A stretch of 59,950 nucleotides of DNA, filler included, from Sphacelaria rigidula (taxonomy: Eukaryota), in NCBI GenBank assembly GCA_964200075.2. It is 5 parts of 5 records of this genome, joined end to end, with 100 filler letters (N's around TTAATTAATTAA, not from the genome) between each part and the next. Parts side by side here need not be neighbours in the genome. Positions count along the whole stretch, not along the records: positions 24,023 to 35,932 come from CAXNAA020004347.1; 4 more parts are not named here. One strand, 5' to 3'. Below, one piece after another: positions 7,622 through 48,041 of this stretch. Made by a program: the position numbers and the translations under genes. The notes beneath the pieces were generated by a model. The model was not told where the DNA came from. It did no database searches and saw nothing but the letters and a program-made list of their open reading frames with translations. The number at the start of each line of letters is the position of its first letter. The stretch's first letter is position 1.

Positions 7622-10600
7622 AACGATCAAACCGCAGATTGGTGCCGTATAAACGCGTACGGCAGAGTACAGTAGCGTGCACGGCATGAGTTTACCCTTG
7701 ACATAGCTGAAAATGTCATCATCACACGCAGTACAGAGGAGTAGGTGAACACATCCCCACAGGGCCTGAGGAAATAGAAAATAAAAAAACACATTAAAAC
7801 TCATAAAACGCGATAAGAGCAAAACAGGGATAAATAATAAAGAAGACAGAGAATACATATGGCTAACCCCAGAAGATCCGATGCCGCAGTACTGCTAGCT
7901 AATGAAAAACACAATGAGAAAGTAATTCTCAATTCTTGGTTAAAAATCTTCACGTTAAGTGTCCTAGTTTCTGCTGTAAGCTTTGTTCACTGCTTGCAGC
8001 TGCAGAATCTACGATGTACCATGCCATTTTACAGCAAAAAAAATGAAAATACGCTCGATGGTATTCCGTGGCGCCCACGTAGAACAATGTGTTCGTGATA
8101 TTGACAGCCTAGGATACGATGGGGAGTGAGAAGCGGTCATTTAATTAATGAAATAATATCTCTTCCGAAATGCTCCTCCAGGCCTTGCACGAGGCCCGGT
8201 ACGCTTTCTGTCGTGGTTTGCCACTAGTATTTGATATCTCTGAGTAGGATATCGACGTATAGATTAAATAGGCATGCGGCAGTGTTACAGGCAAAGAAAA
8301 GCTCACATAACATGAAAAGTCGGTCAAGTTAGAGCGACGAATAAAACTCACTGTCAATCGACGCCACACGAAAATATTGTCGTACTTCTAACGACGAACA
8401 TATGATGCCCTCAAAAACACCAGCACGTCCGCGAAGATATTGTTGATGATCAATGCAAACACGATACACTTCTGCACAACTCTTCATAGACAGTAATCGT
8501 CATCCTCAACTCTCCACTGCAATAATACTCCATCCTCCATAGCTGCGATGATGAGTCATCCTTCATGGAATCGAAATAAAGAAAACATTTCGGTACAATA
8601 TTCGATTCGATATTTCTGTACGGTATATCGAAAGTTTTGGTTCGGTATGCAACACGAGTCGCAAAACAGTACTGACTGTTCCGATGAGACGCTACTGTAC
8701 TGTACTATGAGAAAAAAAACTGTTGGACGTAAGTTATCCACCGGAATGACGTGTCGCTGGTCAAAACCTCGGAAACTGGTTCGTTTTATGGGCGGTAAAA
8801 CTCTGCGATTTCGGATGAACTACGATAAAGTGCTCAACAGCAGGCGATGCGAAGTGTTTTCCGCAGGAGAGTCCGAACTGGCGCAAGCCGCCGTTTACGA
8901 AGATTTTCAGCTCGTTTCCGCATCCTGCCCACGTGTGATGTTGACGTTACTGTTTGAAGTTTTTGTAAGGACACCTTGTTCCCCTATAGATAGACCACAA
9001 GTGGGACACCTCGACGCAGCGTGCAGCTGTATTCGACCAATCTGGTCACGATCATTCATTCCACTGAAGAAAAGGTAGAGAAATCGAGGTGTAGTATTTT
9101 CCGCCTGCCTGCCCCCTCTTGAGTTTCCAGTACACCATGGCTTCATACTCTGTGTAGTGTTGTGGGGCACTGAGCAGAGACATTAGCAGCGTGCGGTAGA
9201 CTGTGTCTAGAGGCGAGCGATGGCACGCGGACTGTTTGTTCCCGCTGTATCCAGCCATCGATGATGAAAAACGTTTCGCATGATGTTTGGAAGAGTAGCC
9301 GCACCAGCTGCAGCAGCACTATTAATTATTATAATAGTATGAAGACAATGAAAAAAACAAGTGCGCAAGACCAAAACACACTCAAGGTATGCCAGCCTTG
9401 CCCCCGCCTACACCGTGTTAAGTGAGAGCGATAGTACGCGGACTGTTTCATACTGTTGTATTCAGCCGCTGATGAAAAAAGTTGGCATGATTTATATATG
9501 GTGGGGTAGAAGCAGCAGCACAAGCAGTAAAACACTGAAGAAAAAAGTTGGTATGATGTATAAACAGTAGGGTAAACGCAGTACAAGCAGTAAAACAACA
9601 GGGGGTACGGGTTACGGGGGTACTGTACGTCGAGACGATGTGACGAACACGCAAGATCAACACACACGCAAGGTGCGCCAGCCCTGCCCCGAAAGTACCC
9701 AGACTGTTGCGAAAGCATGGATAGGAGGACAGCATGTATGTTGATTGCAGATGTCGCAACGGTGACGGTTGTCCAGCGAAGAGATACATACTGACTCTGC
9801 ATGCGCTTGACCGCCGGCTCAAAACCGAGCAGGGTTTCTCGCGGGAATATTTTTTTAATATACTTGGAAGTATGGCCAACATCCACATGTCGATGAAAAA
9901 AGGCGTCTTGTCTAATGAAAAGGCAGCTGTTCTGAACCCCCAAATGTGGCATGGTCCATCTGGGTCCATAGAGGGAGGTTCGCGGTCAAAGGGTTAGTCA
10001 ACACTTGGTCTGTCTCGTGACTCTTCGAAGAACTTTGTCGGGAAAAATACTTTTTTTTTTACAACGCCAATCCTGAACCCCAAACCCAAACCAAGGCATA
10101 CCGAGAAACCTCGGGCAAGGGGAAGACGGAGGAAGGGTGCCCTAGGCAAAGTGTGCGTTGCCAGATTTCGCCGATTTGGACAAAAATGCATTCTGCGCAC
10201 GCTAGGAGCACTCGGGACTGTTAGCCATGCTTAAGATCCGAAGGTCGGTGTCCACAGTAAAATCAAGTCAAAATATTCCGCGAAAGTTCCATGCGACTAC
10301 GCGGTAAAATCTACTGGCCACAGTCATGAGCGATGACCGTGCCATGTGCCACCACCGTGCGTCTTATGGCTTGTATGAACGTTGTACTAGCCGTGGCCTG
10401 TGCAGGCGCGCTGCTGTGAGAGTTTTGGCAGCGGACAGACGATGCCCCGAAACTCCAACCTGCGTGCTAAACCATATGCATGCACGGCTACACTTGCCAT
10501 ACTCCGAAAAAAAAGTTGACATTTGTGTCTGATCAAGCGCTCGAGGGCCATAAGAAAACCTATTACGCGAAAAAAAGTCAGTACGAGAACATCCGAGGGC

Positions 10601-11912: not shown

Positions 11913-12012
11913 NNNNNNNNNNNNNNNNNNNNNNNNNNNNNNNNNNNNNNNNNNNNTTAATTAATTAANNNNNNNNNNNNNNNNNNNNNNNNNNNNNNNN
12001 NNNNNNNNNNNN
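11913..12012. other. Artificial contig spacer
   Basis: 44 N + TTAATTAATTAA (stops in all six frames) + 44 N. Confidence 0.98.
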
Positions 12013-21268: not shown

Positions 21269-23463
21269 CTGCAGTATATCTAGATGTAATGGAGTTAGTG
21301 TCCGATCGATAGTTCAGCCCGATTTCATCGCACCTAACCCGAAAAGTTGAGCCTGAGCTCCTTGCCTAACGTGTTTCCTACCGCCCGACCCCTACGATGT
21401 GAGTGATGACCGATGATGACGGTAAGCGATAACTGGGGGGAGGAGGGGGCGCGTTGGTATACTGTTTTAAACACCAATTTTAATGCAGTGGAGTAGAGGG
21501 CGAGGTGGGACGGACGATCAATAATAGCAAAACGCCCATCGCCATGGGAAACTGTAACAGATGGATAGTCACCTTATATTTTTTCTCTGCTCAAGATGGC
21601 AGCACTCGTGGGCATGCTTCCAACAAAATGCAACAGGAAGGGATGGCCCTCTGTCTCTCTGTGCGCATGTCTTTTCCACGCGAACATAAATACAAGAACG
21701 ACAAATATACGTCGTATAGATGGCCCGAGGGATATACATATCGAGGCGCATGTTGCAACGTCCGGTGTGTTGATGGAATCGCCATGCGCATACAAGTTGT
21801 TGGGTTCATCGCGCGCACATCGGACAAGACAACCTCACGACAGCGCCGTGGTGCGCTGTCGACACCTGTCCGACCCCACCCGAAGGACGGGCGTTGCAAT
21901 ATCTGCCGGGAGGTGCCCGTTTGGCCATCTGTGCAACCAACCACCGTCTTGGTGCCTACGAAAATACCCACCACCTGCACAGTTAAGAGTACGCTGAAAC
22001 GCTCGCTATGAGAACCAGCAGATGGTACACGTTGAGCGGGGTAGAACAGTAACTGTCTGTGTCCTGGTACGGGGCGAAGTGCGACTGATAGAACACGTAT
22101 GTGAACGAAATGTACATGAACATGAGTGCCATCCCGAGCCTCTCTGCAGCCGAGCCCGCCATCTCAGCAGACAGCACACGATGTACAGCACGGGGTGAAA
22201 GCCACCGTGCTACTATCGTGTCGCGCTTTGTTCCAGGCGCAGCGGCGCAGCACTTGTGTCGGGCATACGCGCACGCAACAACTCAAACAGCAGCGAATCC
22301 AAACCGCTGCACGGTTCAGTCACCTCACATCATACGTACGGAGATCGACTCGGGGGAAGAAAAAGCCCGTAAAACTTCGAATTTTTTCTCGGTCTCTAAT
22401 GGTCTGGAAATATGGAGAGGGCTACCAACCATCGCGTGGCATCATGTGGGGGATAATGAAACCACCGCATAGAACATAGAGCGTGCATGCTAAGGTTCAA
22501 AAGTTCAACATGTCAAGGAGGGGCGCGAGTGCAGAGAACAAAAAAATGTAACCGTTCAGGAAAAGTATCCGAGCGGTTCGTTGCTGCGCGACTTTCGGCA
22601 TAGATAGGGGGTGCTCGTCAGAGCAACGGCCTAACTAGTGCGCGCGCCCTCGGGCGAAGAGCACGAATTCGTGTCTCAAGGCCAGCAGTAGAAAGAGGCA
22701 TTGAGGCTGAAAACATACAGGTAAAAGCCCGCGGGCGGGGAAAAGTCACCGCCAAAACCATCGTGACGCGGCGGGGAAGGAACTGTGCTTTGCAGTACAG
22801 TCCACGTTGAACCCTCACGAAGAAGGCCAAACCCATGATGGGTCGTCACAACGATGCATCCATCCGCAGATGAGGAAGACAAGAGGCACACAAGATTCGA
22901 AACAGAATGAAGATGGTATTAACTTTTCGGGTACCAACGACCAGACGCCGCCGTCAGCACATCTGTGCGTCTAAATGCTAGGCAAAGCTAGCTGCCGTCA
23001 AGTGCGTCGACACACATGAAGGCACACACCACCCGCATACCCCGTCCCAGTCTCCAAGCAACGAAACGAACACAAAAGATAAAACGAAAAAAACACGCGA
23101 GACAAATAACGATTATTACTATCGAACACTCAATGTAGCACCTATTTGAAGCCATGCTGTAACATATCATACGAAAGTACTTCAGCATGCCGCTGTTATG
23201 CCCCCGTAGTGGCGAGATGCTACTACATGTTTCGACATCGTCAATCCAGGCACAAACAAATGAACACCCCACGACGCATCGGCGCAGAAAACAGCGACAA
23301 CTGTTTTCTGTCCTGTCATGTTTTTTCTACTGCCCTTCTCTACGTTCTACAGCGCTAGTGAATGCACCACAAACACAAAGACCATATCTCCTCTTTTACA
23401 GGATAGTCAAGGGTACGAGAGAAACGCAAATAAATAGCGAGCAGATCACCGTCTTGTACGAGT

Positions 23464-23497
<34 letters not shown>

Positions 23498-23699
23498 ACC
23501 CCCCCCCCCCCCAACACCCAAACAACAAACCCCCCCCCACNNNNNNNNNNAAAGACAAAAGCGAAAAAAAAACAAAAAAAAAAAAAGAAGACCATCCCCT
23601 TTTTTAACAATTCCCCCCCCCCCCCCCCCCTCGACCTCCCTCTCAACTGTACATAGCAAAAAGCACAAAATCAACACCACACGATGCAAGTACCAGGTA

Positions 23700-23868
23700 C
23701 CCCCCGCGCGCGACAAGTGTGATCGCTTCGCGCTTGGTGATTGATTGCGAGCCTGGTCCGGCGAAATACCGGCGTGTTCCGTTCCGGCTTTGTAGGGATG
23801 CGAGGTCAATGGCCATATAGCTACGGTATGCAAGATCATGAGTACACCCCCCCCCCCCCCCCCCCCCC
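23700..23868 (+). mobile_element. Retroelement 3' end abutting poly-C
   Basis: Ends AGGGATGCGAGGTCAATGGCC...ATGAGTACA followed by a C22 run, similar to 49040-49097. An internal part recurs at ~35442-35490. Confidence 0.55.
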
Positions 23869-23922
23869 AAAAAAATAAAAAAAAAAAAAAAAACAACAAC
23901 ACACAAACCACCACACAAACAA

Positions 23923-24022
23923 NNNNNNNNNNNNNNNNNNNNNNNNNNNNNNNNNNNNNNNNNNNNTTAATTAATTAANNNNNNNNNNNNNNNNNNNNNN
24001 NNNNNNNNNNNNNNNNNNNNNN
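23923..24022. other. Artificial contig spacer
   Basis: 44 N + TTAATTAATTAA + 44 N. Confidence 0.98.
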
Positions 24023-24454
24023 ATTCACTGATTGACCGCTTTTCACTCTCAATCGTATCATCTACTCTCAATCTCACGAAAACACTGTTCATAGCGTAAA
24101 CGTAACGTGAACGTGATTTTTTTCCCGTCATGAACGTAACGTAAAATTTTGTTGACATAACATGCGTAACGTAACGTGAACGTTGAATTGCCCGAACGTT
24201 CAAAACCCGTGATACGAAACGTTCTTTTTCTTTTCTCGTGATGAACGTAACGTTAAATTGTTTTTACGTGATGAACGTAACGTTAAATTGTTTTTACGTG
24301 ATGAAAGTAACGTTAAATTACTTTCACGTGATGAACGTAACGCTAAATTTCGAATGAAACGTGTACGTAACATTTTTTTCACGTGACATACGTTACGTAA
24401 CGTGAACGTTAATTTTTCTTACGTATGAACGTGACGTGAGCGTGTATATCCCTG
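24023..24454. mobile_element. Terminus of a probable hAT-type DNA transposon with subterminal repeats
   Basis: Dense AACGT(A/G)ACGT motifs and a 30-bp tandem (~3.8 copies, 24237-24349). Ends ...TATATCCCTG, which is CAGGG on the other strand. The other end is cut off by the contig edge. Confidence 0.55.
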
Positions 24455-24676
24455 AGAATAATAGATTGCCGTGTGTCCAGGGTGCTTCTAATTTCATTTC
24501 ATTTCGGTGTTTGTGACGTTGCGGTCTTGGATTGCGGCGGTTAAACCGGAGCGGTCTCGGCTGGGCCCTTGTTAGAATTGGATTTAAAATGAAGGTTTGC
24601 CGCACGCATGCGGGGTATGATGACGTGTGGTTGAATGGACGCGTAAAGTTATACTGAAGCATCAATCGTGTTCGTG

Positions 24677-24792
24677 TTATTGCTGTCGCCCTACATTCGC
24701 AAGGGCCCGCAGTAAGCCGGCGCTGAGACCCGAGCTGATTCCCGGCAAATTCCCGCTTGGTCGCCCCGCGCTAGTCCCAGCCACCGCCATTC
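24677..24792 (-). CDS. infC: IF3 gene terminal coding exon
   Basis: aaaccag|GA ATG...CAA TAA encodes GMAVAGTSAGRPSGNLPGISSGLSAGLLRALANVGRQQ*. Confidence 0.55.
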
Positions 24793-27700
24793 CTGGTTTC
24801 AAGTACACGTACAGGACTTGCTTCCTGGTATGGCTTTGACTATAAGTTGCGAACTGCTGTTTCTCGGGCAGACAGCGTCAAGCGTCAAGCACCTGCACAC
24901 TGGGCCGAGGGGCCCCATATCAGGAAATGACGGCACCACCACCCCCCGGGTTATCCAAACCTCATTCTGGGGCCGTAGGAGGGGAGGGGGCGGGCGGGCA
25001 GGTACTCTTTTTGAGGAGGGGGGTACCCCCCTGATCGATGGATAATGGCGATATTAGTTGCTGTGTGTGCGCGCATCGGTCTCAGAAAACAGATGAATGT
25101 ACGGTACATAAAACATGCTGCTTGCTGCTGTATTCGACACTGCGTACACTGCGTACCAACCGCAGCGTGACGCCTTCGGCGGTACTACCTGCTCACTGCA
25201 CAGCGGCAGGGTGCAGGGTGACAAAGCACACCGCAAGACGTGACATCCTTAGCCTATTCGAGTCGCAAAAAAGTGGTTAGTCAAAACTTTATCCCGGAGC
25301 AGAAACCAAATTTACTTCGTGGAATTGGAATAAAATGTCATCCTACAAAAGGGGGAATGTGCCAAAAGCATCCGTCGAGGATTTTCATCACTTCACGATA
25401 CCCTGTGCGTCGCCAGAGGTGGATCGTACCGGGAGTGATATTTTTCCTCGAATACGGATATACGCACTTCGACAGAAAAATCATCGCAACCGTCACGTGA
25501 CCCATGAGTCCCCGCATTAGTTTTAGTGGGGCAATATGTCATAAAGAGGGCAAATGATGCTCTCAGTGTTGAGGCACAGGATTGGTTTGTATGAACCCAA
25601 CATGGCGTAGGTCAGCATTGATCATTCGGGGACGATAGATAGGCTGTATAGTATGCGACCATATATCCATCATACCAACATTAGATCGCTTCGCAGTAAT
25701 CCTTCCAAACCCTCCCTTCCGTGAGCTGAAGAAATGGCACCGAGGCGTCACAGTGACGTGTCCCGTCGAGTTCCGGCAAAAGTCATCACCCCTGTATATA
25801 TCCAACGCTCAGGCCACCTCAAGGATTGCACCGTGCTAATTCCTCAAGTCCCGGAAAATTTCCACCTACTCCTGACTGGATCTGTTCGGATCATTGCATT
25901 CTTGCTCTTTCGATGCAAACCCCTCCGAGTCATTGACCCTAGCGTTGCCTTGAGCTCCATCTTCACCCTTCCCATGCTGATGCCTATTTCGCTCATCTGC
26001 CCAATCCCTGTCCCCAAATAGTGCGGCGAATCTTCTCGACTCTCCTTCCTCCATGGCTGCGCTACCTGCAACACCAGCCCCCTTTACTTCTCCTTCCCCG
26101 AATACTCTGCGATCATTCGTCGAAGAGGCCTCATCACGTCCCCCGCTTCTGGCTTCTCGCATGTCCAACTCATTCGGCATGTCTCCCCGGGCACCAAAGC
26201 GGCGCGAAAAACTCAAAGAACCATCTGTTGAAACATCTGTCAAGTGCGACCTACCCACGCCACTGAAGCGCTCTGCGAAGCTTGGTGCACTACCATCGTC
26301 TTCAGGAATGCTCGATTTCGCGGCACCAGCCCCTGCATCATCGGTGCTTTCCGTGAAACTCCTGGCTGCTGTGGTCGTACCGGTACCACTTCCCGCCTTA
26401 CTCGGGGGAAATGCGTCGCCGCTTTCCCTGCCGCCACTTGTAAAGCTCTGCGCGAAACCGCTACCGCTGCTGCTCCCACCCTCCCTCGGCGGTGGCGGCG
26501 ACAGTTCTTCCGATAGCTGATCTCCACGAGCTGCGATATTACTACTCCATGCGCGGCGACTTTTACCCCTTGTATCCACTTCTGAATCCGGGTGCGGCAC
26601 GACGTGGCTTGTATCACTCATGTTGTGGCTGAAGGGATCGCCCAGGTGCTTCTTCAGTGCAGCCCCGTCCAAGAAAGTCTTGGCAAAATTCCGCGTTATT
26701 TCGCTGGTTATTTCCGGCTCCACCTCTTCGTCATGCTCGCCTTCGTCCACATCGTTATGCCCGTCATCGGCGGCCGATTTCTTACGATCGCGACCCCTAT
26801 CCTCTGTGGTGGAAAACCATGCACTTACCCCAGTATCATGGATATCCTTCTTGTTACCTCCAGCGTGAAAATTCGTTGACAGGTCGTCCTCGAACCTGTC
26901 CGCAAAACCCGTCGCGCGCCGGTCACCGTTTACACTTTTCACTACTGTGGCACCCTGCTTGCGACCACCGAACCAGGCAGCGTCGGCTTGTAACTCCACA
27001 ACGGTCTCATCTCGTTCTTGATGCCCCCCCACCCCACCCCCTCCAGCGTCTATCCCACTCCTCGTTCGATCTCCTTTTAATCGGCCGGCCGCTGCTCCAT
27101 CAGCATCTTTTCCCGAGCGTCTTGAGCCGTTGAAGCCTCTTCTCTCTCTCCCTCGTCCTCCACCCGCGAAGTCCGAATGTCCTCTCCCAGCTCCGTTTCC
27201 GTTGCTATTCTGTCTAAAACCTCGTTCCTCCATGACCTCCCACTTTCTCCGTCGCCGGCCACCGCCGCCCCCTTCCTCGTCATCGTCGCTTGCGCTCCAG
27301 TCCGGGTCATCTCCATCTTGTCCCCCACCGCCACCTTTCTTTCGGATCTTGCCCTTCCCTTTACCCTTCACTCCATCGAACACGTCGGATTCTCCTTCAA
27401 AGAACGCGTCCAGCTCTGTCTTGTGTGCTCTTCTCCTCTTGCCTCTGCGTTCATCGTGGTAGTCTTGCACTGCGCTCGCATCCATACCATCAAAAGCGCC
27501 AGCCTCCCTCATGTGCAGCAAATCCGCTTCCGTTTCCGCATCAAACACGTCGAGGCCCCTCCCATGATCTCTTTCCCCCTCCCCCATCTCAACATCATCC
27601 CGTCGCTTGCCTTCATTTTCAGACCCCAACCCCAACTCGTCCTCCACAGCAACAGCACCTTCAGCCTTGAGTCTGGCGCACACCGCGGCGACGTTAGCCA

Positions 27701-30700
27701 AGCCAATTTCACGGGCTTCACGCCTCCTTTGTTGGCCGACGGATTCCGCCTTTTGAAGCTCTGATGCGTCCTGTTCCATGTCTCGCTTTTCAGCGAAATC
27801 ACCATCGAGCGAATTGCTAGATTCCTTTGTGCATTGTTCATCACCAGCCACGGACTGTTGGTCTGAGGTGACAATGGCGGAGTCGTCGCCAGATTTTGCC
27901 ATGGGATCCATCCCTGACGGCTCGGTTCCAGTGCTCGTGGCCACTTCTTCGTCCGAGACAGTGAGGTCGGAATCACCGCTTGACTCGTTGTCGGATTCTT
28001 CACCGGGTTTGTCGACAGCTTCTATGCCCGACTTGTCTGCTCGAGCGGTCGCGGAGTCTACGTTGCTTGTCTCATTTTCAAGTTTGTTTTGTCTTGCACT
28101 CTTGGAGACCTTCTTGTAAGTGCAAACGATTTCTCGTTTGGCCATCCTGTTGCCGCTTTCAGAGTACGTCAGGTTCACCTTGTGCATTATACAGTATGCA
28201 GCGGTCAGAGGGGAGGAGAGTGTGCGGGGGGGGGGGATGCAGCGAAGGTGAAGGCAACTAAAAAGCACGTTCGACTTTCTTGGGGTGTCGACGCCTATTC
28301 GCGGTTTGTCGGATGGCTACTTCGTGCATTCAAAGACAGTACAAGCAAGGTTTGCCAAGAAGCACCAAATCAACAAGCTAGTCATGTTTGAACGGCAGTG
28401 AGTCAGGGCAGAGCTGAGCATACCGTCAAAATCGGCTGCTTCAGGCGGTCACGCGCAGCTATCCAGCTGAGGAATCCCCCGAGTCCGTGTTGCGGAACGC
28501 GCGTCCCTGTACTTACACTCTATTGTATCATGTTTTCATGTTGCTCTTCTGGAAACTTCTCACAAAAAACGCAAGTGGGTGTTGCCAAACGTTCTGAGCG
28601 TGTTACTCCCGAGGCGAGAACAGCGGTGGACGTCTCACTCCGCGATATTCTTATTCCATTTTTTGCTCTTTATTTATTTATTTGTCGCACTTTGAACCCC
28701 TCCCCTTCCTCGGGATGAGTCCGTGGTTTCAAGGGATCAACCCGTCTCTCCCCGGTACGTGCCTTTCATTTTGGTCTCGCGGGTTGGATCAGCACTCCCG
28801 CACCGCGTCAACTTACGTCAAACAAACAGTCGACTACTCTGTTTCCTCACGTTCTCACGCTTTCCACGGTGGAAATCATACATTACGAGGAAAAAATCCA
28901 ACGCGTCGGGAATCGAACCCCGTTCTCTCCACCCTAATGGCGACAGTCGGACCATTACACCACCGGGGCGCGGTGGCAAATATATCGTTCGAACACTGCA
29001 GCCGAAACCCTGTGCGAGATGTGATGAAATGCAGGGTAATCTTGGTTGAAATATTGGCCACGACAGGTCACTTGTTAGAGTAGAGATAAAAAATTTTGAC
29101 CCGTGATTTCCGAGGAACTCGCCGACACAGGATTTGATCCCCGTCCGTGCATTGATTTTCACAAACGTCCCTCGAACTCTCCACTCACGAAAACAATTAG
29201 GCGGATCATATTTCGGCGAAAAATATGATACCTTGGGTCCCGAACCCCGGGTCGGCGAGTTTTTCGCAAAATAGGTGTTGAGATTTCAGGCCCAACCCGA
29301 GAAAGTGTGTTTTGCGTGGCGATTTTGACTAGTACCGGGGCTCTTGGCCAACCCAGCTTGAAGGTACTGTAGTTCCTATATGAGCAACAACGAGAGCGAT
29401 TATAGTCGTGCGCAAAAAGCCCACTAATCAACAAAGTGATTGCTGACGGCTGGCACATGTTCGTCTTTCGTTAAACTCCCACCAACGCGAGCGCAACCAA
29501 CCATGGCACATGTGTGACACATGTCTATATCAACATGCAGTAACTTACCACTGCGGGATCCAGCTTTTCAATAAGCTTCGCCTCTAGCTCGTCTAAGCAG
29601 TTCAAATTTCGCCGGAGGATCCTCATGTTTGCCTCCAAAGAAACCTGTCAAGATCAATAAATCAAAGAACAGACGCTCACATAGTTAGGTGGTGGGAAAT
29701 ATGAACAGCCCTCATCTGCTACCACGAGGACGTGGACGTTCCGCATGGGCCAATTCTTAGTTTTTCTTTCTTCTTGTTTATAATCATCAATATTTTATTT
29801 GTCGCACTTTGAACCCCTCCCCTTCCTCAGGAAGAGTCCATGGTCTACTCCTACTCCTACTCCTACTCCTACTAGTTTCAAGGGCTCAACCCATCTCTCC
29901 CCGGCACACGTCCTGTATTTTGGTCTCGCGGATTGGATCATGACTATCATCACTCCCGCACCGCGTCAACTCACGTCAAACAAACTCAGTCGACTGCTTT
30001 GTTTACTCACGTTCTCACGCTTCCCACGGTGAAAATTAGATACCACGAAGAAAAACCACAACGCATCGGGAATGGAACCCTCGTTCTCTCCACACTAATG
30101 CTGACAGTCGGACCATTTTAATTTACACCACCGGGACGCGGCGGCAACCAAAAATACAGCAAACGCTGCCGCTATTCCCAAAATGAGATGAAGATGGCAA
30201 TCGTACATACGCCCGCTGACTAAATGGCGCTTGGTCATACCCGCGGTCTATTCGAAGACAAAACCGCGCTACCACGCATGTCAGCGAAGTGAAAAACGAA
30301 GACTCATATTTTGTCGGTTGTTGCACTTCGGCAGCGTCCGCTTTCATACGTTGTGAACTACTTGGGTATCATCCAAACCCTTGGGTGATGACTATCCTAC
30401 CTCGATTTCACGGGAAAACTGCGTCAGTTACGTGGACCGAACATTTGTATTGGTGACATCGTCGATATCTTCAACGGCTGTGTCGGGGGTCCGTAGTCTA
30501 AATATTGATACGGAAGGATTGCGAACGTTTCAATCGCCCGCTGTTGTCTACAGTCCGTCACCCGCGACGTGGTCGCTGCTACAGCTCACCTTGACGACAT
30601 CTCCCCTCTCGAGGTAGGCTATCAGGTCGTTGACCTTGCGTTCGAAGTCATGTGGAGCGATCATGCCCTGGCAAAGAACGAGAAAGCGGAAAGAAGTTGA

Positions 30701-33700
30701 CCGAGTGTGCATGGACCATGTGAAAGAACACACTGAACTATTGAAGGGGAGACATTAAGGTGGTTTGATTGATTATGGTGTGCTTCTATGGGCTATGGTT
30801 TGACGAACTTCAGCAGCAGTAGTTCAACGATTTGATGAACCAGCGACAAGCTGGGGAACAACCATGTGCAGCTACATTTCAGGAATTACAAGCTGACTTT
30901 TTGACACGAAATATATATTACTAACACGCGGGGGAAAATAGTAGTCGAAGCAACAACAACAAACAGAAAATCAAAGCGAATTGATATTTCAGTAAAAGAA
31001 ATGACATCGTAACTCCATGAAAAAACAAATGTGCTTGTTGCCGTGTGGAACTTTCAACTTGCTTGCAGAAGATCCTTGCAAACATTTCGGCTCAAAACTC
31101 CTCACATCCATCTGTGCCTGTGCTTGCAACTTGTTGTGTGACATCACTGCACCCTGGTGGTCCAAGCGATACGGGGGACTCCAGTTACGGAGGTGACGAG
31201 TTAGAATCCCGACAGATACTTCATACAGGCGGGTTCCCGCTTATCAACATGAAACAACTCATCCGCAAAACTTCACGCCGTTTTTAGGAGTTGAACCCTG
31301 AATTTATGCACAATTTTGTTATGGGTCACTACGCAACTTCCGAAGGACGAGGTTTTCATACTTTTGACTTTCGGGAAACTTGGATTTCGTCGGACCTCCG
31401 AAAAACGGTGAAAAAAATCAACAAGCAAAAAAATCTCGTCCATCGAAAGTTGCATTTTGATCCATAGCACGATTGTGCCAAGTTTCACACCTCGGATAGA
31501 TCATCATCTGTGTCACCCGGGTGATACAGGTATAGTGTGAACACGTTTGTGTACACGATTTGGATGACCCAGTGCAACTAGTTATGACACGGTTCCCGTA
31601 TTGCAGGTGTCATCGATCACGAGGGAGGCATCTTGTACGAGTCATGAGGGTACCACAGGTTGTTATCGACATTTTGAGTACGCCTTATTCGGACTAAGCA
31701 GGTGTGTTAGAGGAGGAGTACACAAATCACTTGAAGAAAAAAAAACTAGTACAAGGAACTCGAGTCATACAGATCATCGCCATCAAGCGGACTTGTACGA
31801 ATCACACCTGAAAGACCAGGTTGCTCTAATCACTCGCAGATCGTAAAGGTCATATGGCTGTTCGTCGGGCGGGCTTGCGGGAGCCACGCGTGCTCCATGA
31901 ACGCCGGCAATGTACACTTCGATTACTTTTTCCCGGAAAATTTCATCAGACGCTGGCCGAACAGCCTCATGGTGTATCAATGGAGCAAATAAATTTAGCT
32001 ACCCTTGCTTTTTCAGTCGCACACGAGTGCGCACTCTGAACGAAAAAATACGAAAGCAGTCGTCCATTCTGCCGCTGGCACAACTTCATGAAGGAGTTGA
32101 GTCACTGGGGCATCAAATCATGTTCCATGTGCCCGGGTTGCAACAATCAATCGACGGTATTGTATACATGCACCATGTACCAGGGTCGAATAGGTTATGT
32201 GAGGAATATTAAACACTATGTATTGTACACTGGATTCAGATTCCACAGGTGAGAGGTAGCTTTTGGTATACATGAGATTCAAATCACACGGGTCGACGAG
32301 CAGCTGCTGCGTTTGAAGGAGCCAAGTTATAGAGATGACACCCTGTGATGTTGTATAGATGGCACAGTTCTGCAGATCAGTTCTACATGAACATGTGTGT
32401 GTGTGAAGGGAGTCGTACAGCTCGTCGCTCGGCAAATATGTACCGGTAAAACGGGTCCTACAAATCTCCATCGGACAAGCGTACACGGGTGACGGCACAC
32501 CTTGGACAGATCACGATCTGTGCCTTAAACCAGCCAACTCAGACCTGTCACGATCTGATGCGACCGAGGTGTGCGAAGTTTCAAGCTTCAACTGTTGAAA
32601 ACGGCGTGAAGTGTAGCATGGTTGTGCGATGACGTCAGCTTCAAACGTTCAAACTCCTGAGTACATGGTTCAAGTATGAAAAAGTTTGTTGGGGGTGAAA
32701 AGCCATGTGGGGTTTTCGAATTCCTCGACCAAACTCTGTACATCTGTTCCTGGGGCTTCCCCGGGACCTTTCGTTTGATTTCCTTTGAGCCATTCTGTAC
32801 CGCCTTCCGAGGGTCTTCATACTGGGACCCCCGAAAGGAGGTAGAGAACGGAGAAACTTTGAAATATAGCCAAGACCACAATTCTTCCATTTGGAACATC
32901 AATACCTACGAAATTGCCAAGTTTCAGGGTGGTCTGGCCGTCACAACAATTTGAAGCACGTGGCGGTTGGCTGAATTTGGCTTGATTCGTATTTTCGATT
33001 TCAGAAATTTGAAGGGCGCTAATTGGTCGGGGTAAGTTTTCGCCCTTGGCGCCACTACCATGTTCTAAAATACGAATCCAGCTATGCCACGCTCTTCAGC
33101 TATCCATGACGGTCAGTATGATATCACGTATGCGACTATTGGGTAGGTATTGGGAAAGGTATTTGCTGATGACACAGTATCTGGTGACGTAGCGTGAACC
33201 CGCCTGTACTTCGGAGTATATCATAGAATCCGTTGTATAGTAAAGGTAATATATTTTGTAGCACATTTTATTTTTATTTTTATGGTGTTGTCCTTTGCGG
33301 CAGAGCGTGCACCAGCAAGTTGGTCTGCTGTTCACAGCAAAATACTGACATCGGGCTGATTCGGGAAACTGGAAAAGTGGTTTTCAGCGCGCGGTGGGTG
33401 TGTCTGCTCGCTGGCCTAGCCTGTAACCATGACCCAAATCCTGCCCGGGTGACAATGGGTATTTGTCCTTCGTCGATCAACATGGCGGCATGGCGGCATC
33501 CAAACTCGCCACCTTCGGCAGCTTGGGAATATGCATATCCTTCGAAATCTACAGCAGAAGCAGTAGCAACCACAATGACACCAGTGAACTATAATAACGA
33601 TGCTACGTCGTCCGAGTTGTGGTAACCTTCGACCGCCGAAGCTCCGTAGCTCGCAAGATTTGTTCTGTACCTTCAGTTGCACGCCCTTGGTCTGCTGCTT

Positions 33701-33801
33701 TTTGGAGTTTTTAACTTTGGCCTTCTCGTTCTTCTTCTTGCGGTACTGCTCGGCTCCGTAATCCATGATCTGGCACACCGGCGGTGTTACGTTCCCGTTC
33801 A
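24677..33801 (-). CDS. infC: Organellar-type translation initiation factor IF3 with a long C-terminal extension (5'-partial, six exons, ~926 aa visible)
   Basis: Exons 33801-33671, 30667-30590, 29644-29549, 28178-25870, 25725-25676 and 24792-24677 are all GT-AG bounded and phase-compatible. IF3 signatures are PPVCQIMDYGAEQY and KGVQLK|GMIAPHDFERKVNDLIAYLERGDVVK|V. Confidence 0.85.
25676..25725 (-). CDS. infC: IF3 gene 50-nt exon
   Basis: tttcttcag|C TCA...GTT G|gtatga. Phase 2 in and phase 1 out, bridging both neighbours exactly; encodes SRKGGFGRITAKRSNV. Confidence 0.6.
25870..28178 (-). CDS. infC: IF3 gene large exon: end of C-domain plus low-complexity tail
   Basis: 2309-nt stop-free frame inside the 800-aa track ORF. 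Acceptor acaag|GTG is in phase 0 but is a weak AAG site. Donor is GA|gtaggt. Confidence 0.85.
28669..28977 (-). mobile_element. tRNA-derived SINE, type 2 (in IF3 intron)
   Basis: A-box TGGTGTAATGG, B-box GGTTCGATTCC, ends AAAGTGCGACAA(ATAA)n. Paralog at 29792-30145. Confidence 0.8.
29549..29644 (-). CDS. infC: IF3 exon: C-domain second helix
   Basis: ttgacag|GTT...GTG|gtaagt, 32 codons, VSLEANMRILRRNLNCLDELEAKLIEKLDPAV. Confidence 0.8.
29792..30145 (-). mobile_element. tRNA-derived SINE, type 2 (in IF3 intron)
   Basis: Colinear with 28669-28977, with an internal (CTCCTA)n expansion at ~29845-29872. Confidence 0.8.
30590..30667 (-). CDS. infC: IF3 exon: C-domain
   Basis: tttgccag|GGC...AAG|gtgagc encodes GMIAPHDFERKVNDLIAYLERGDVVK, matching I-x2-HD-x3-K...L-x2-G-x2-VK. 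Confidence 0.9.
32585..32957. mobile_element. Possible TIR element (MITE)
   Basis: Imperfect inverted repeat GCTTCAACTGTTGAAAACGGC / GCCGTCACAACAATTTGAAGC. No clear TSD and single copy in the window. Confidence 0.3.
33671..33801 (-). CDS. infC: IF3 exon: end of N-domain and Lys-rich linker
   Basis: tgcag|TG AAC...CTG AAG|gtacag encodes (V)NGNVTPPVCQIMDYGAEQYRKKKNEKAKVKNSKKQQTKGVQLK. Confidence 0.9.
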
Positions 33802-35876
33802 CTGCATTTCAAAACGACGATACGGGGACATGGTCAGCATTCACGCGTGTAAAGGAGTATAACATGGGGGCAGCACAGCGGATCCCTTGGAACATCCCGC
33901 GAATCGGGATCCAGTGTTCTGTATATGACTATGAACTCACTTGCTCCACTTCAAATGCGTGCGTGTAGTGGAGAGTTTCGGGGGGAGGGAGAGGCGGAGG
34001 GATGAACCTAGGATGAGAAGTATTAATAGGCTTACGGCATCCTAAAACCCGTGTTGAAAGCCTCATGTAAAAGGATCGCAAACAGTGAGGTCGTCAGGAA
34101 GCGAACATGACGGAGCTAAGATCATCGCGGGAACATGCACCTGTGCTTGTAGAGAACAATCGAGAACAATCGAGAAAAAGCTACGCACATTTTCGGCATG
34201 GCAAGAATGGTTGATTTCATGTCCTGCACCTCCTGCCTGTGTCCTCTCTAAGGGAAGTTCCGCCAAAAAATACAGCTACTAGCTGAGCGGACCTATGGAG
34301 GCACCGCGATCCAGGATCATTCTTGCACCACGATCCAGAGCCGCACTACGGACTTGGGAGTCAAAGTACTGTTTTACTGCTGGCTATACTACACCGTCAC
34401 GTATATGTCACATGACCGCAAAATTGCGTTTGACGCCTCCAGATACAAACTATGGGAAAACGAGCTACATATAATAGTCTTGTACGATGCTGCCGGAGTT
34501 TCCAAAGCTGCCCCACGTCCCCGCGGCGGGATTCAGCGCGTCAGGTACATCACATGGTGCTCCGATTCATGGATTATAGTGCCCTGGTGGCCAAGAGACA
34601 TGCACCGAGCCAACGACTAATGTTTTGCGGTGCGATTTCACTCGGCAGGCGCACCGTCTGTACGTGGTGAGTTTACGAGTGAAAGATACCCACAATGATG
34701 TACACACGCGCCCCGACACGTGGCAAGAAGTGGACAGCAGAACTATCGCAAGGATGAACTTGCGAAGTTGAAGCCACGGCGGTAAATCTTTGGCCTGTAC
34801 AAGCCCCACTGCCCCAGAGGGAAGGTCATGGTGTTCAAAGTTGCCTGAGGGCACTGGGCTCGAAGGTCGCTTTTCCTTCTGCTGCTGTACTGTGCCGTGC
34901 CGCGCTGTGCACTACATGTCGAGGTCAGCTTCTTGCCGTCATTCAGACGTGTACAGTGCCTCGAACCTGAGCACATACGGAGCGCAGATCTCCTACCAGG
35001 ATGACTCGAGGTGTTGGAACCGCAGCGGTGAGCTTGTTTGACTGATCAAACCCTGGTGGCAATAGAGGGCCTCGTGGTATTCGCAGTGGACAGGGGGCAC
35101 TGAGCTCGTTACTGAACTCTTGATCCCTTTCCTGTACTTACTGTACAGTTGTACCGTGGGAGGCGCGGGTAGTTCCGTTTCATCAAGCTAGGTCTAACCA
35201 TCAAGTTGTGATTTGTGAGGCCATCCACCGGTAGCGGCATTTTCACCCCATCTCTCCTGCACACAAACATTTCACCTACCGTTCAAATAGGGAAGCTTGT
35301 CATACCCCATACCCGAAACTTAGCCCTATATTTTATCCATACGTTATATTGTCTTCTCCTGAAATTTCTCATGATCTACCGCATGTATTCATCAGGGCTA
35401 AACATCAACCTAACGGTAACCCCTCACCCCACCCCCGAGAAAGCCTGGTCCGGCGAAAACACGGCGTGCTCCGTCCCGGTTTTGTAGGGGCGGACCCCCC
35501 ATGGGTTTGGCGTGGCTTGCCAATGACGCTGTAAAACACGCCACTCACTGCGTAAGCTAGGCATCCAGGTTACCGATTGTTTTGCACGCTTGCGTTTTTT
35601 TGCGGTAATCATGATGGTGGTCGAGCTAGATCACATTGTGCGGAGTGGGAGAACCTTGGCGCAAAATGGATAATCATACTACGTAGTGTTCAAATGGTGA
35701 GACACCCATAAGGCAGTGTATAGGCTGTCTTTCTCTGGAAGTGTCGATACCAGAAAATGAAGCAACTCATTGGAGGCTGTCATCCAAATGCAAGATAATC
35801 AATACGCTTCGGGCCGAGCAGTCTTCGCACGATGCAGCTCACCCGTCATGCGACTCGCCGAACACACCACGGCGCT

Positions 35877-35877
<1 letters not shown>

Positions 35878-35913
<36 letters not shown>

Positions 35914-35932
35914 CTTCACATTAAAAGCCGTT
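35878..35932 (-). repeat. Retroposon 3' end with (CAA)n tail
   Basis: Minus strand reads AATGTGAAGACAACAACAAC... The same end occurs at 53483-53560 (-) and 56795-56848 (+). Confidence 0.7.
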
Positions 35933-36032
35933 NNNNNNNNNNNNNNNNNNNNNNNNNNNNNNNNNNNNNNNNNNNNTTAATTAATTAANNNNNNNNNNNN
36001 NNNNNNNNNNNNNNNNNNNNNNNNNNNNNNNN
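35933..36032. other. Artificial contig spacer
   Basis: 44 N + TTAATTAATTAA + 44 N. Confidence 0.98.
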
Positions 36033-42399: not shown

Positions 42400-45130
42400 A
42401 TGCACCAGCGAGTTTACTACACGACGGTCTCCTCGTTACGTTTCGGTGATCCCCGATAGGCCCTGAGGTAACTCTGGCGGTAACGCAGCAAACATTTCCG
42501 TAGCATGGCGTGCTTTGGTCCAGGCTGAAATGCACATCTTAGTCCTCTTCTCTACAATTCGGTAGCATTTGGAAACATCTTGGGCGACCTGTGTGCACGA
42601 TGTTGTGTTTATTCCGGAATCGGAGCAGAATTCCGTGAAACCGTGCTGTATGCGTTTTGCTGGTCGGCCTGCTCTCGTCTTCTCTCCGACAATTACTCCA
42701 CGCATGATGATGTTGGGGAGGCGCTTCTCGTGCATATGCACGACGTGGCCAGCGTGTAGGAGTATACACTTCATCACAGTAGCCCCGATTCACTCGCAGC
42801 CAGTTCTTCCGAGAACTTCGCGGAATGGCAGCATGTGGTAGTCGAGAGCGCTTAGTGGCCAGAGCGACGTACGGATTGTCGTACACCGCTCAGCTGTACA
42901 AGTGGAAGCAAGTTCACACCTGGTCAATGCGGCTACGGATCTCAGGAATGATATCATCGATACTGCTGATTTTGCCGTTGAGATTGACGAAAGACTCGAC
43001 TTGCTTTCATCCTGGTCCACCGCCTCTACCTCGACCACATTCGCCCTCATGCTCGAGGAACGCATGTGCATGGTTTCCGTCTTGTTTTCCGCCGCGCCGA
43101 GACCGAACGCCGCTCAGACTTCGACGACGGTCGTCACCATCTTTGCCAGGCGTAGTTGAGATCGCGAGACGACGCCAGCATCGTCGGTGTACAGCATGAC
43201 CCAAGGCATTTCGTCAAGTTCGTCTTTGGTATTCCCGCCCGTTCCAGCGATGTGGAAAGAAGGCGAACGTCACCGTTAGCACCACCGCGAAGAATATGCT
43301 GAACAAACCGAGGAAAATGGCAGCCTTGGCGAAAGCCCTGGTTTACGTTGAACCTCTCAGATGTCTCGCCGCTGTCAAGGCGTACGGATGCCCGCACGCC
43401 ATCGTGGAACTGGCGGATAGTGGATGTCACCTTGGCGAAGATGCCATATCGTGCTAGCACCTTCCATAGCGGTCAACTGAGCCGTACGCCTTTTGGTGGG
43501 TCGATGAAGCACATGTACAGGAGAAGATTCTTCTCTGTAGCCAGTTTTTGGAGTCTGCACACGATGTATATCAGGTCGACTGTCGACCGACCGGGTCGGA
43601 TGCCGTATTGAGCTGAGCGGATTCCCTCCCAATCACAGTAGGCGCTGAGGTGAATCGCGCCTATCTTGAGAAACACCTTGACCGGGTGGGACCCCAACGA
43701 AGTACCGTGGTAGTTGCCGCATTCGTGCGGGTCCTATTTCTTGAACAGCACCTTGATGATGGTGTTTACCTACTCCTGGAGTACTATTTCCTGAAACCAC
43801 CCTGTGAACACGACGTTGCAAAGGCATTTCACGATGGCAGAGTCCTTGGTGCGGCCGAACTTCAACGGTTTGCTACAGATGTTGTCCGGCCCAATGGCCT
43901 TGCCGTTCACGACCGTGTCCGCTGCTTGTTTCACTTTTTCCGTGAAGGGCTCGACCACGAGCGGCGCGTGCTCCGGCATCTGTTCGATGACATCTATGAC
44001 AAAGTGGTCGACAGTAGGCGAGGTTGCTTTCGGGAGCTTTGCAAACCACTCCTTCCAACGTTGTTTGCCTGTCCCACGACAACTCGACGGTCGTGCTCCT
44101 GACGTACGTTGAACCACACACCCTTTCCCCTAGCAATTCCAAGGCCTTGATATATTGGTATAGCCTTGCTTGGTCCTTCTCGCGGGCAAGCTCTACTATC
44201 CTGACGGTGCACTCGTGAATGAAGTTCTGCAGTTCAGCGTCCGTCATTCGCTTGAATGCCTCGTCTGTAATCTTGAGCGCTTTGCTCAAGGAAGGGCCTT
44301 AGGGATTGGCGCACCGTTTCTCTCGTACACGTTTCCTCATATTTCACACCTCTTGGGGGCGATCCCACGCCCGTGGCGACTAGCTGAAACCTTTAGATGG
44401 GGGGTTCTTACCGTCGGAGTGTGTCCGCGGCCGTCTGTCGCAGAGCGTTCGGCGAAGGTCGATGTTATGCCGGTGACTCCCAGGACTACGGTGGAGATGG
44501 CGTTCGCGGGCTTGGCGACAATGCCCTGCGAAACAATCGCTCTCCAACGTCCGTCGGATGCGAGGAGCTTCCGGTCGAAGCACACTCCGCTGTCCCCACT
44601 TCTCGGTTTTGATCAGCGGTTGAGTGGTCTGTCCGACGAGACGGATGATGGCTGAAACCAGTCGATGGTCCGATCCCATCTTGGGGTGCATAGTGACGTT
44701 TCGGGCGAGTGTGTGGCCTTGCTGACGTACCAGGATGTCGTCCAGGGGCAAGCGGTGCCCGGCCTTCGGCCCCTCATATGTATATGCGGCCGAGTTTTTC
44801 CCGCTAGTTGGCACGCGAAAAAAATGCGTGTTGGTCATTGCCATTATATGTTCCTCCGTGTATTTCAGCAAAGTTCTACATGTGTATCATATCGGGTGTC
44901 TCTGTCATATTCTCCCAATACACGAACGTCATCCAGGTCTCCTCCTTCGCTCTTTCCGGTTCGGGCGTTCACATCCACCGTGGTATGAGGTGCTCGTCGG
45001 CGGGCAGTGCAACGATGGAACTACTACGTGTCTTCCAGAATTTGGCCTTTTCAGCGGTGAGTGCTGTCTCGGTGTGAACATCCCCCATGATGGGCCATAC
45101 TCACTTTTCGAGGGAGATGATACTGGTTCA
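42400..45130 (-). mobile_element. RTE-clade LINE remnant (AP endonuclease + reverse transcriptase), non-functional
   Basis: Endonuclease motifs DVNARTG and GSDHRLV. RT motifs GIRPGRSTVDLIY...LYMCFID, IRQFHDG...GFRQGC and MLYTDD. C-terminal RLPNIIMRG...GRP. Many frameshifts. Confidence 0.92.
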
Positions 45131-47941: not shown

Positions 47942-48041
47942 NNNNNNNNNNNNNNNNNNNNNNNNNNNNNNNNNNNNNNNNNNNNTTAATTAATTAANNN
48001 NNNNNNNNNNNNNNNNNNNNNNNNNNNNNNNNNNNNNNNNN
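47942..48041. other. Artificial contig spacer
   Basis: 44 N + TTAATTAATTAA + 44 N. Confidence 0.98.

Follow-up and report, generated by a model that had tools for sequence, protein, structure and literature searches.

A brown-algal gene joins a divergent bacterial-type IF3 core to a tail of about 747 residues in one mRNA

We analyzed a window of 59,950 nucleotides (nt) from the brown alga Sphacelaria rigidula (GenBank assembly GCA_964200075.2), the window being the whole stretch of DNA under study, made of five contigs. On its third piece (positions 24023–35932, CAXNAA020004347.1), we found a minus-strand gene for a translation initiation factor 3 (IF3), with four exons readable, in which the IF3 core is followed by a C-terminal tail of about 747 residues beyond the end of the IF3 C-domain, encoded in the same exon and carried by the same mRNA. 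IF3 is among the most uniform of the translation factors, with about 180 residues, and a tail of this length, encoded by the very exon in which the C-domain ends, stands at the extreme among IF3 extensions. What stands out here is the size of the tail and its fusion with IF3 at the level of the exon; IF3 with regulatory extensions is already known. The gene is a nuclear, intron-containing, brown-algal gene coding for a divergent bacterial-type IF3 with putative ribosome activity. S. rigidula belongs to the order Sphacelariales, and its genome is among those analyzed in the Phaeoexplorer preprint.

The exons, here labeled A to D in the direction of transcription, and the features that separate and follow them are:

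33671–33801, minus strand: exon A, 131 nt, opening with two bases that finish a codon started off the contig
30668–33670, minus strand: intron A/B, 3003 nt, GT..AG; absent from the RNA-like contigs and present in the DNA run X5 (see below)
30590–30667, minus strand: exon B, 78 nt, IF3 C-domain
29645–30589, minus strand: intron B/C, 945 nt, with one copy of a dispersed repeat of ~330 nt at about 29768–30130
29549–29644, minus strand: exon C, 96 nt, IF3 C-domain, within the IF3_C, TIGR00168 and PDB IF3 alignments of the annotated protein
28179–29548, minus strand: intron C/D, 1370 nt, with the second copy of the dispersed repeat at about 28651–28975
25869–28178, minus strand: coding part of exon D, 770 stop-free codons, comprising the last IF3_C strand (about amino acids (aa) 1–24 of the exon) and then the tail
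28107–28178, minus strand: end of the IF3 C-domain within exon D, aa 1–24, by the TIGR00168, IF3_C and PDB alignments
25866–25868, minus strand: TAG stop codon, kept within the transcript contigs
25206–25865, minus strand: 3' untranslated region (UTR), about 600–660 nt; the transcript contigs end at 25267 (X1), 25248 (X3) and 25206 (X6)

Joined, exons A–D translate in a single frame, closed by one terminal stop, into 871 residues, split into ~125 aa of IF3 and ~747 aa of tail. All donors begin with GT and all acceptors end in AG, exon A being flanked by an acceptor ending in TGCAG and by the donor GTACAG. The other five frames over the 2.3 kb of exon D contain 10–58 stops each, with a longest open run of 212 codons compared to 770, and this abundance of stops excludes chance as the source of the 770-codon open reading frame (ORF). 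An earlier, sequence-only reading of this DNA had proposed that three small IF3 exons splice in frame into a 2.3-kb exon, which the 770 stop-free codons bear out. It had also divided the visible product into about 130 IF3 residues and about 800 tail residues; the long tail stands, and its length comes down to about 747.

The fusion is documented by assembled transcripts. Among eight sequencing runs containing exon D, four were aligned to the contig: X1 and X3 (study P1), X6 (study P2) and X5. The type of run is a guess and is not on record: X1, X3 and X6 (~80 million letters each) are read as transcriptomes from their spliced contigs alone, and X5 (756 million letters) as genomic DNA. X1 and X6 are near-equal in size and may not be fully independent. 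From each of the three putative transcriptomes, a single contig (3712 nt in X1, 3266 nt in X3 and 3772 nt in X6) shows three joints, 28176 to 29547, 29642 to 30588 and 30666 to 33670, which equal the junctions 28178/29549, 29644/30590 and 30667/33671 once shared letters are allowed for, and which carry CT..AC ends, that is, GT..AG on the minus strand. The first of these junctions is the one that the sequence-only reading had singled out for checking against RNA. In X1 and X6, all four exons lie in one contig each; in X3 the same three joints are present, with no exon B piece among its aligned pieces. The DNA run X5 is colinear with the genome; its depth at each of these joints is 0, and several intron bins with depth 0 in X1 and X6 reach a depth of about 30 in X5.

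The contigs of X1, X3 and X6 cover exon D in one piece, with no differing letter and no gap, and they pass unspliced and without mismatch from 28176 through the TAG into the 3' UTR, placing the 3' end of the gene near 25206. Two further small exons had been proposed downstream of the large one, reaching down to 24677; none of the joints listed leads to such exons, and the transcripts simply run on through the stop codon. Because the last part of the C-domain lies in the same exon as the tail, exon choice cannot separate core and tail. We regard the gene structure, and the presence of the IF3 core and the tail on one mRNA, as practically certain.

The 5' part of the gene lies beyond the contig edge, as had been surmised from the sequence. 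The contigs of X1 and X6 extend 494 nt further upstream of 33801, and this extra sequence, which could not be aligned to 33802–35932, implies at least one more exon off the contig. It offers room for the missing 44 positions of the IF3_N profile and for some 120 codons more, of presequence or 5' UTR. Inspection by eye of the minus strand between 33700 and 46000, where the portion beyond 35932 is a different contig, showed no IF3_N-like ORF of at least 30 aa.

The identity of the core was assessed by profile comparisons and by alignment with solved IF3 chains. Exon A codes for the last part of the IF3 N-domain, for the Lys-rich linker between the domains and for the beginning of the C-domain: it matches positions 45–69 of the 70 of Pfam IF3_N (PF05198) with 30.1 bits, above the cutoff of 26.9, and its Lys-rich stretch falls opposite the linker when aligned to such chains. 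Positions 1–44 of IF3_N must be encoded off the contig. Exon B alone matches positions 12–35 of the 86 of IF3_C (E-value 0.006), and the three small exons are confirmed as carrying IF3 sequence. The remaining comparisons concern a public protein, CAM9415700.1 (P0002; 'unnamed protein product, partial', Sphacelaria rigidula), which is the annotation of this very locus. Its residues 25–107 match IF3_C (PF00707) positions 2–79 of 86 (E-value 3.3e-6, 27.4 bits compared to a gathering score of 34.8), and PF00707 is also included in its precomputed domain table. It further matches positions 60–162 of the 170 of TIGR00168 infC (E-value 3.6e-12, 46.4 bits compared to a cutoff of 60), a score lowered by a query that is without its N-terminal third, and it aligns with six solved IF3 sequences (best E-value 1.6e-6). 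The domain matches stop at P0002 residues 106–108 (106 for PDB, 107 for IF3_C and 108 for TIGR00168), which is 16–18 residues into exon D.

P0002 is identical to exon A across the aligned part (100% identity over 74% of the query) and uses the same three splice junctions, but its 283-aa model takes an internal Met of exon A as its start and extends no further than aa 193 of exon D. A separate 114-aa product, P0003, corresponds to aa 257–370 of exon D, so that the public records split what the transcripts show to be one continuous exon. The public gene model of the locus is fragmentary and hides the full tail; the structure given here corrects it.

The tail is acidic, rich in Gly, Arg and Lys, and predicted to be mostly disordered, in agreement with the sequence-only reading, whose three quoted peptides all occur in the ORF. 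Across the 770 residues of exon D, the most frequent amino acids are Gly (13.9%), Asp (10.4%), Ser (10.1%), Ala (10.0%), Glu (9.6%) and Arg (9.1%), and the 154 acidic compared to 109 basic residues make the charge of the tail net negative. AlphaFold2, run with a three-sequence alignment, gave exon D a mean predicted local distance difference test (pLDDT) score of 37.7, with 692 of the 770 residues below 50; islands above 60 are confined to helices at 147–172 and within 214–261. The segments of the tail, numbered by the residues of exon D, are:

27729–28031, minus strand: strongly acidic, Ser-rich segment, aa 50–150; of aa 51–150, 27 are acidic and 6 basic; pLDDT below 50
27660–27749, minus strand: conserved helix block 1, aa 144–173, with a predicted helix at 147–172 (AlphaFold2; mean pLDDT of 10-residue blocks 60–77)
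27393–27539, minus strand: conserved helix block 2/3, aa 214–262, with predicted helices at 214–225 and 234–261 (AlphaFold2; block mean pLDDT up to 75)
27054–27392, minus strand: KG repeat, Gly runs, acidic patch, Arg run and RG/RGG-like stretch, aa 263–375, assigned from the sequence
26013–26906, minus strand: C-terminal half with six F-[A/S]-x-x-F motifs, aa 425–722

The six F-[A/S]-x-x-F motifs exceed what the composition of the tail provides: none of 20,000 shuffles reached six, the maximum being 3. At three of these motifs, AlphaFold2 predicts a short helix of low confidence. Pfam and NCBIfam scans of the tail returned no family match, and a search of the ESM Atlas with aa 135–355 of the tail gave a best score of 0.86, which is at chance level. 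The DNA of the tail holds no notable tandem repeat, only a single weak 23-nt array.

Relatives of the fused protein are few. Among 5.8 billion proteins searched by word index, one turned up, P0001 (645 aa, E-value 8e-11), and HMMER, run in full over 1.84 billion representatives, returned P0002, P0003 (from the same contig) and again P0001. A search for longer relatives of exon A gave 2 candidates, with the annotation of the locus itself as the sole match. P0001 comes from another organism and begins with the same IF3_C end, which means that the fusion is present in a second organism; its C-terminus probably reads into an intron. Conservation between the two proteins is uneven along exon D:

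IF3_C end, aa 12–23: 9 of 12 residues identical to P0001
Helix block 1, aa 144–173: 21 of 30 identical (70%)
Helix block 2/3, aa 214–262: 28 of 49 identical (57%)
KG/acidic/Arg segment, aa 263–313: 21 of 47 identical
All other segments of exon D: 24–30% identity, with many gaps

The blocks conserved in P0001 coincide with the helices predicted by AlphaFold2. Signs of constraint, with P0001 as the only sequence available for this comparison, are limited to these two helix blocks, which together span about 80 residues; most of the tail outside them aligns at low identity. A further protein, P0004 (773 aa, from a 3378-nt contig), begins with three intron-coded residues and otherwise contains this ORF, from which it differs at 9 of 770 residues and by no insertion or deletion, a divergence too small for a test of selection. 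Scans of metagenome contigs (141 pattern matches) and, with P0002, of prokaryote genome contigs (600 pattern matches) yielded no confirmed relative. The lack of a match from other brown-algal proteomes has one of three explanations: the tail is absent from them, has diverged past recognition, or was omitted from their gene models.

The known IF3 extensions are much shorter, as the sequence-only reading had stated. PMC2241858 describes three cases. Chloroplast IF3 of Euglena (IF3chl) has an N-terminal extension of more than 100 residues and a C-terminal one of just over 60, and these extensions cut 30S binding about 100-fold; human mitochondrial IF3 (IF3mt) has short extensions that flank the homology core and modulate interactions with the ribosome; and IF3 of Myxococcus xanthus (Dsg) has a C-terminal extension of more than 60 residues that is needed for development, not for viability. 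The Sphacelaria protein resembles Euglena IF3chl in combining a bacterial-type core with a long terminal extension in a nuclear gene, and a regulatory effect may be proposed for it by analogy, but its tail of ~747 residues far exceeds the C-terminal extension described in that text. With mammalian IF3mt it shares an IF3 core bearing a terminal extension, short in the mammalian proteins of the same source; unlike them, it does not reach the cutoff of the Pfam mIF3 family (PF14877), P0002 scoring 14 bits compared to 33.8 (E-value 0.041), so that membership in the mitochondrial family is unsupported. Dsg, as described there, is the parallel for a C-terminal extension on an otherwise ordinary IF3, in a bacterium; the Sphacelaria tail differs in belonging to an intron-containing eukaryotic gene and in having two conserved helices and repeated Phe motifs. 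Our literature search, which covered chloroplast and brown-algal IF3 extensions, found no paper on an IF3 tail of this size, and a search on plastid-encoded infC in brown algae led to red-algal papers only.

Taken together, the account that we favor, with somewhat better than even confidence, is an organellar-type IF3 core with a cis-acting regulatory and tethering tail, a reading that leans on the analogy with these extended factors. That the protein functions as an organellar IF3 appears probable. The core would work on the small ribosomal subunit of an organelle, plastid or mitochondrion, as do the eukaryotic IF3 homologs that have been studied; to our knowledge, all characterized ones act in mitochondria or plastids. 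The tail would act in cis as a regulatory and tethering extension. The acidic segment (aa 50–150) might shield the basic linker and the C-domain and so damp binding to the small subunit, as in Euglena chloroplast IF3, and the conserved helices, the RGG-like stretch and the Phe motifs might dock a partner protein or RNA. This combination of autoinhibition and tethering, again drawn by analogy, is possible, and we hold it as a tentative and rather doubtful mechanism. A decidedly unlikely variant is an anchored initiation factor, in which the helices and the six Phe motifs would dock IF3 to a membrane complex, a translation zone or an RNA granule, while the acidic segment would keep the undocked core off. 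A scaffolding or granule role of the tail, suggested earlier from the sequence, is speculation, and recruitment of the IF3 fold to a nuclear or nucleolar role would be a still bolder proposal.

Several observations weigh against the organellar, tail-regulated reading, and some of them are just what would be expected if the tail were neutral, lineage-specific low-complexity 'ballast', derived from read-through past an ancestral stop, with only the IF3 core mattering. This second account is unlikely in our estimate, with an appreciable chance of being right. It draws on the fraction of exon D with pLDDT below 50 and on the absence of look-alikes in the Pfam, NCBIfam and Atlas searches. P0001 is the only outside homolog among the 1.84 billion representatives, and none of the 5147 candidates for longer relatives of P0002 reached an E-value of 0.001 or less. 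Outside the helix blocks, the tail is only 24–45% identical to P0001 and heavily gapped, and much of it may, from this comparison, be weakly constrained. Lineage-specific disordered extensions are common in eukaryotes, and the tail may equally be largely dispensable. Against neutrality, the helix blocks, at 70% and 57% identity to P0001, come near the 75% (9 of 12) of the adjoining IF3_C end; the number of Phe motifs goes beyond composition, as the shuffles show; an origin by tandem repetition is not apparent at the DNA level, with its one weak array; and the 770-codon frame is open in two copies, the locus and P0004. The core itself departs from the standard: its IF3_C and TIGR00168 scores lie under the curated cutoffs, and alignment with E. 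coli IF3 shows that most of the Arg-rich stretch following the first C-domain strand has been replaced. These two features together mark it as divergent.

The compartment is the other point of dispute. Nuclear or nucleolar proteins, more typically than organellar ones, carry acidic Ser-rich runs, K/R clusters and RGG-like stretches, and with the N-terminus off the contig, no targeting sequence is visible. The composition and motifs of the tail could accordingly be read as nucleolar-looking, giving an IF3-fold protein that is not, or not only, organellar and that has a nuclear or cytosolic role. We consider this very unlikely: the eukaryotic homologs already characterized are known to act in organelles, and the extra 494 nt of the transcript suffice for the rest of IF3_N and a presequence. 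The most skeptical view takes exon D for a separate gene, or the usual mRNA for one that ends in a different short terminal exon, making the fusion an artifact. The split public records, with P0002 ending at aa 193 and the 114-aa product covering aa 257–370, might be cited for it, and minor isoforms are possible, given 110 weaker joints beyond those listed. Yet exons A–C and the whole of exon D occur in the same contig in two studies, the last IF3_C strand is encoded in exon D, so that IF3_C homology enters that exon, no alternative short terminal exon was seen, and P0001 has the same arrangement in another organism; this view is extremely improbable.

The gene provides a natural setting in which to study how disordered extensions may tune or localize organellar initiation in a little-known secondary-plastid lineage. 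The fused arrangement with its two conserved helices is common to at least one other organism. In Euglena (PMC2241858), extensions of tens to just over 100 residues already shift ribosome binding about 100-fold. Should the anchored-factor variant prove true, IF3 itself would exert spatial control over organellar initiation in this lineage of brown algae.

The surroundings of the gene are rich in repeats. The dispersed repeat of ~330 nt lies in neighboring introns, at 28651–28975 and 29768–30130, in the same orientation. Its copies are 81–83% alike, and their word depth is very high in the DNA run and in the RNA-like runs, peaking near 188,000 in X5 and near 10,000 in X1. It looks partly tRNA-like by eye and may be an element similar to a short interspersed nuclear element (SINE); ARAGORN and Rfam searches of the contig, this repeat included, gave no tRNA and no Rfam family. 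At one end of the contig, 24117–24377 is a tandem array with a 30-nt unit rich in ACGTAACG and very high depth in all runs, a high-copy satellite or repeat and the probable cause of the break in the assembly. The other end, 35139–35932, is likewise high-copy, with a depth of 215,000–673,000 in X5, and its terminal (CAA)n-like run reads as poly-Gln or poly-Thr.

The five contigs of the window, each 11,909–11,912 bases long, are probably neighbors in a length-sorted assembly, and features on different pieces need not be linked; the spacers between them (11913–12012, 23923–24022, 35933–36032 and 47942–48041) each consist of 44 N, TTAATTAATTAA and 44 N. On a different contig, at about 23400–23900, there is a long C/G-rich simple sequence that translates into poly-Pro or, from the opposite strand, into poly-Gly, with a 10-N gap at 23541–23550. 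On another, at about 42400–44300 on the minus strand, there are broken ORFs with motifs that, recognized by eye, we take to be reverse-transcriptase-like, which suggests a decayed retroelement of the long interspersed nuclear element (LINE) type.

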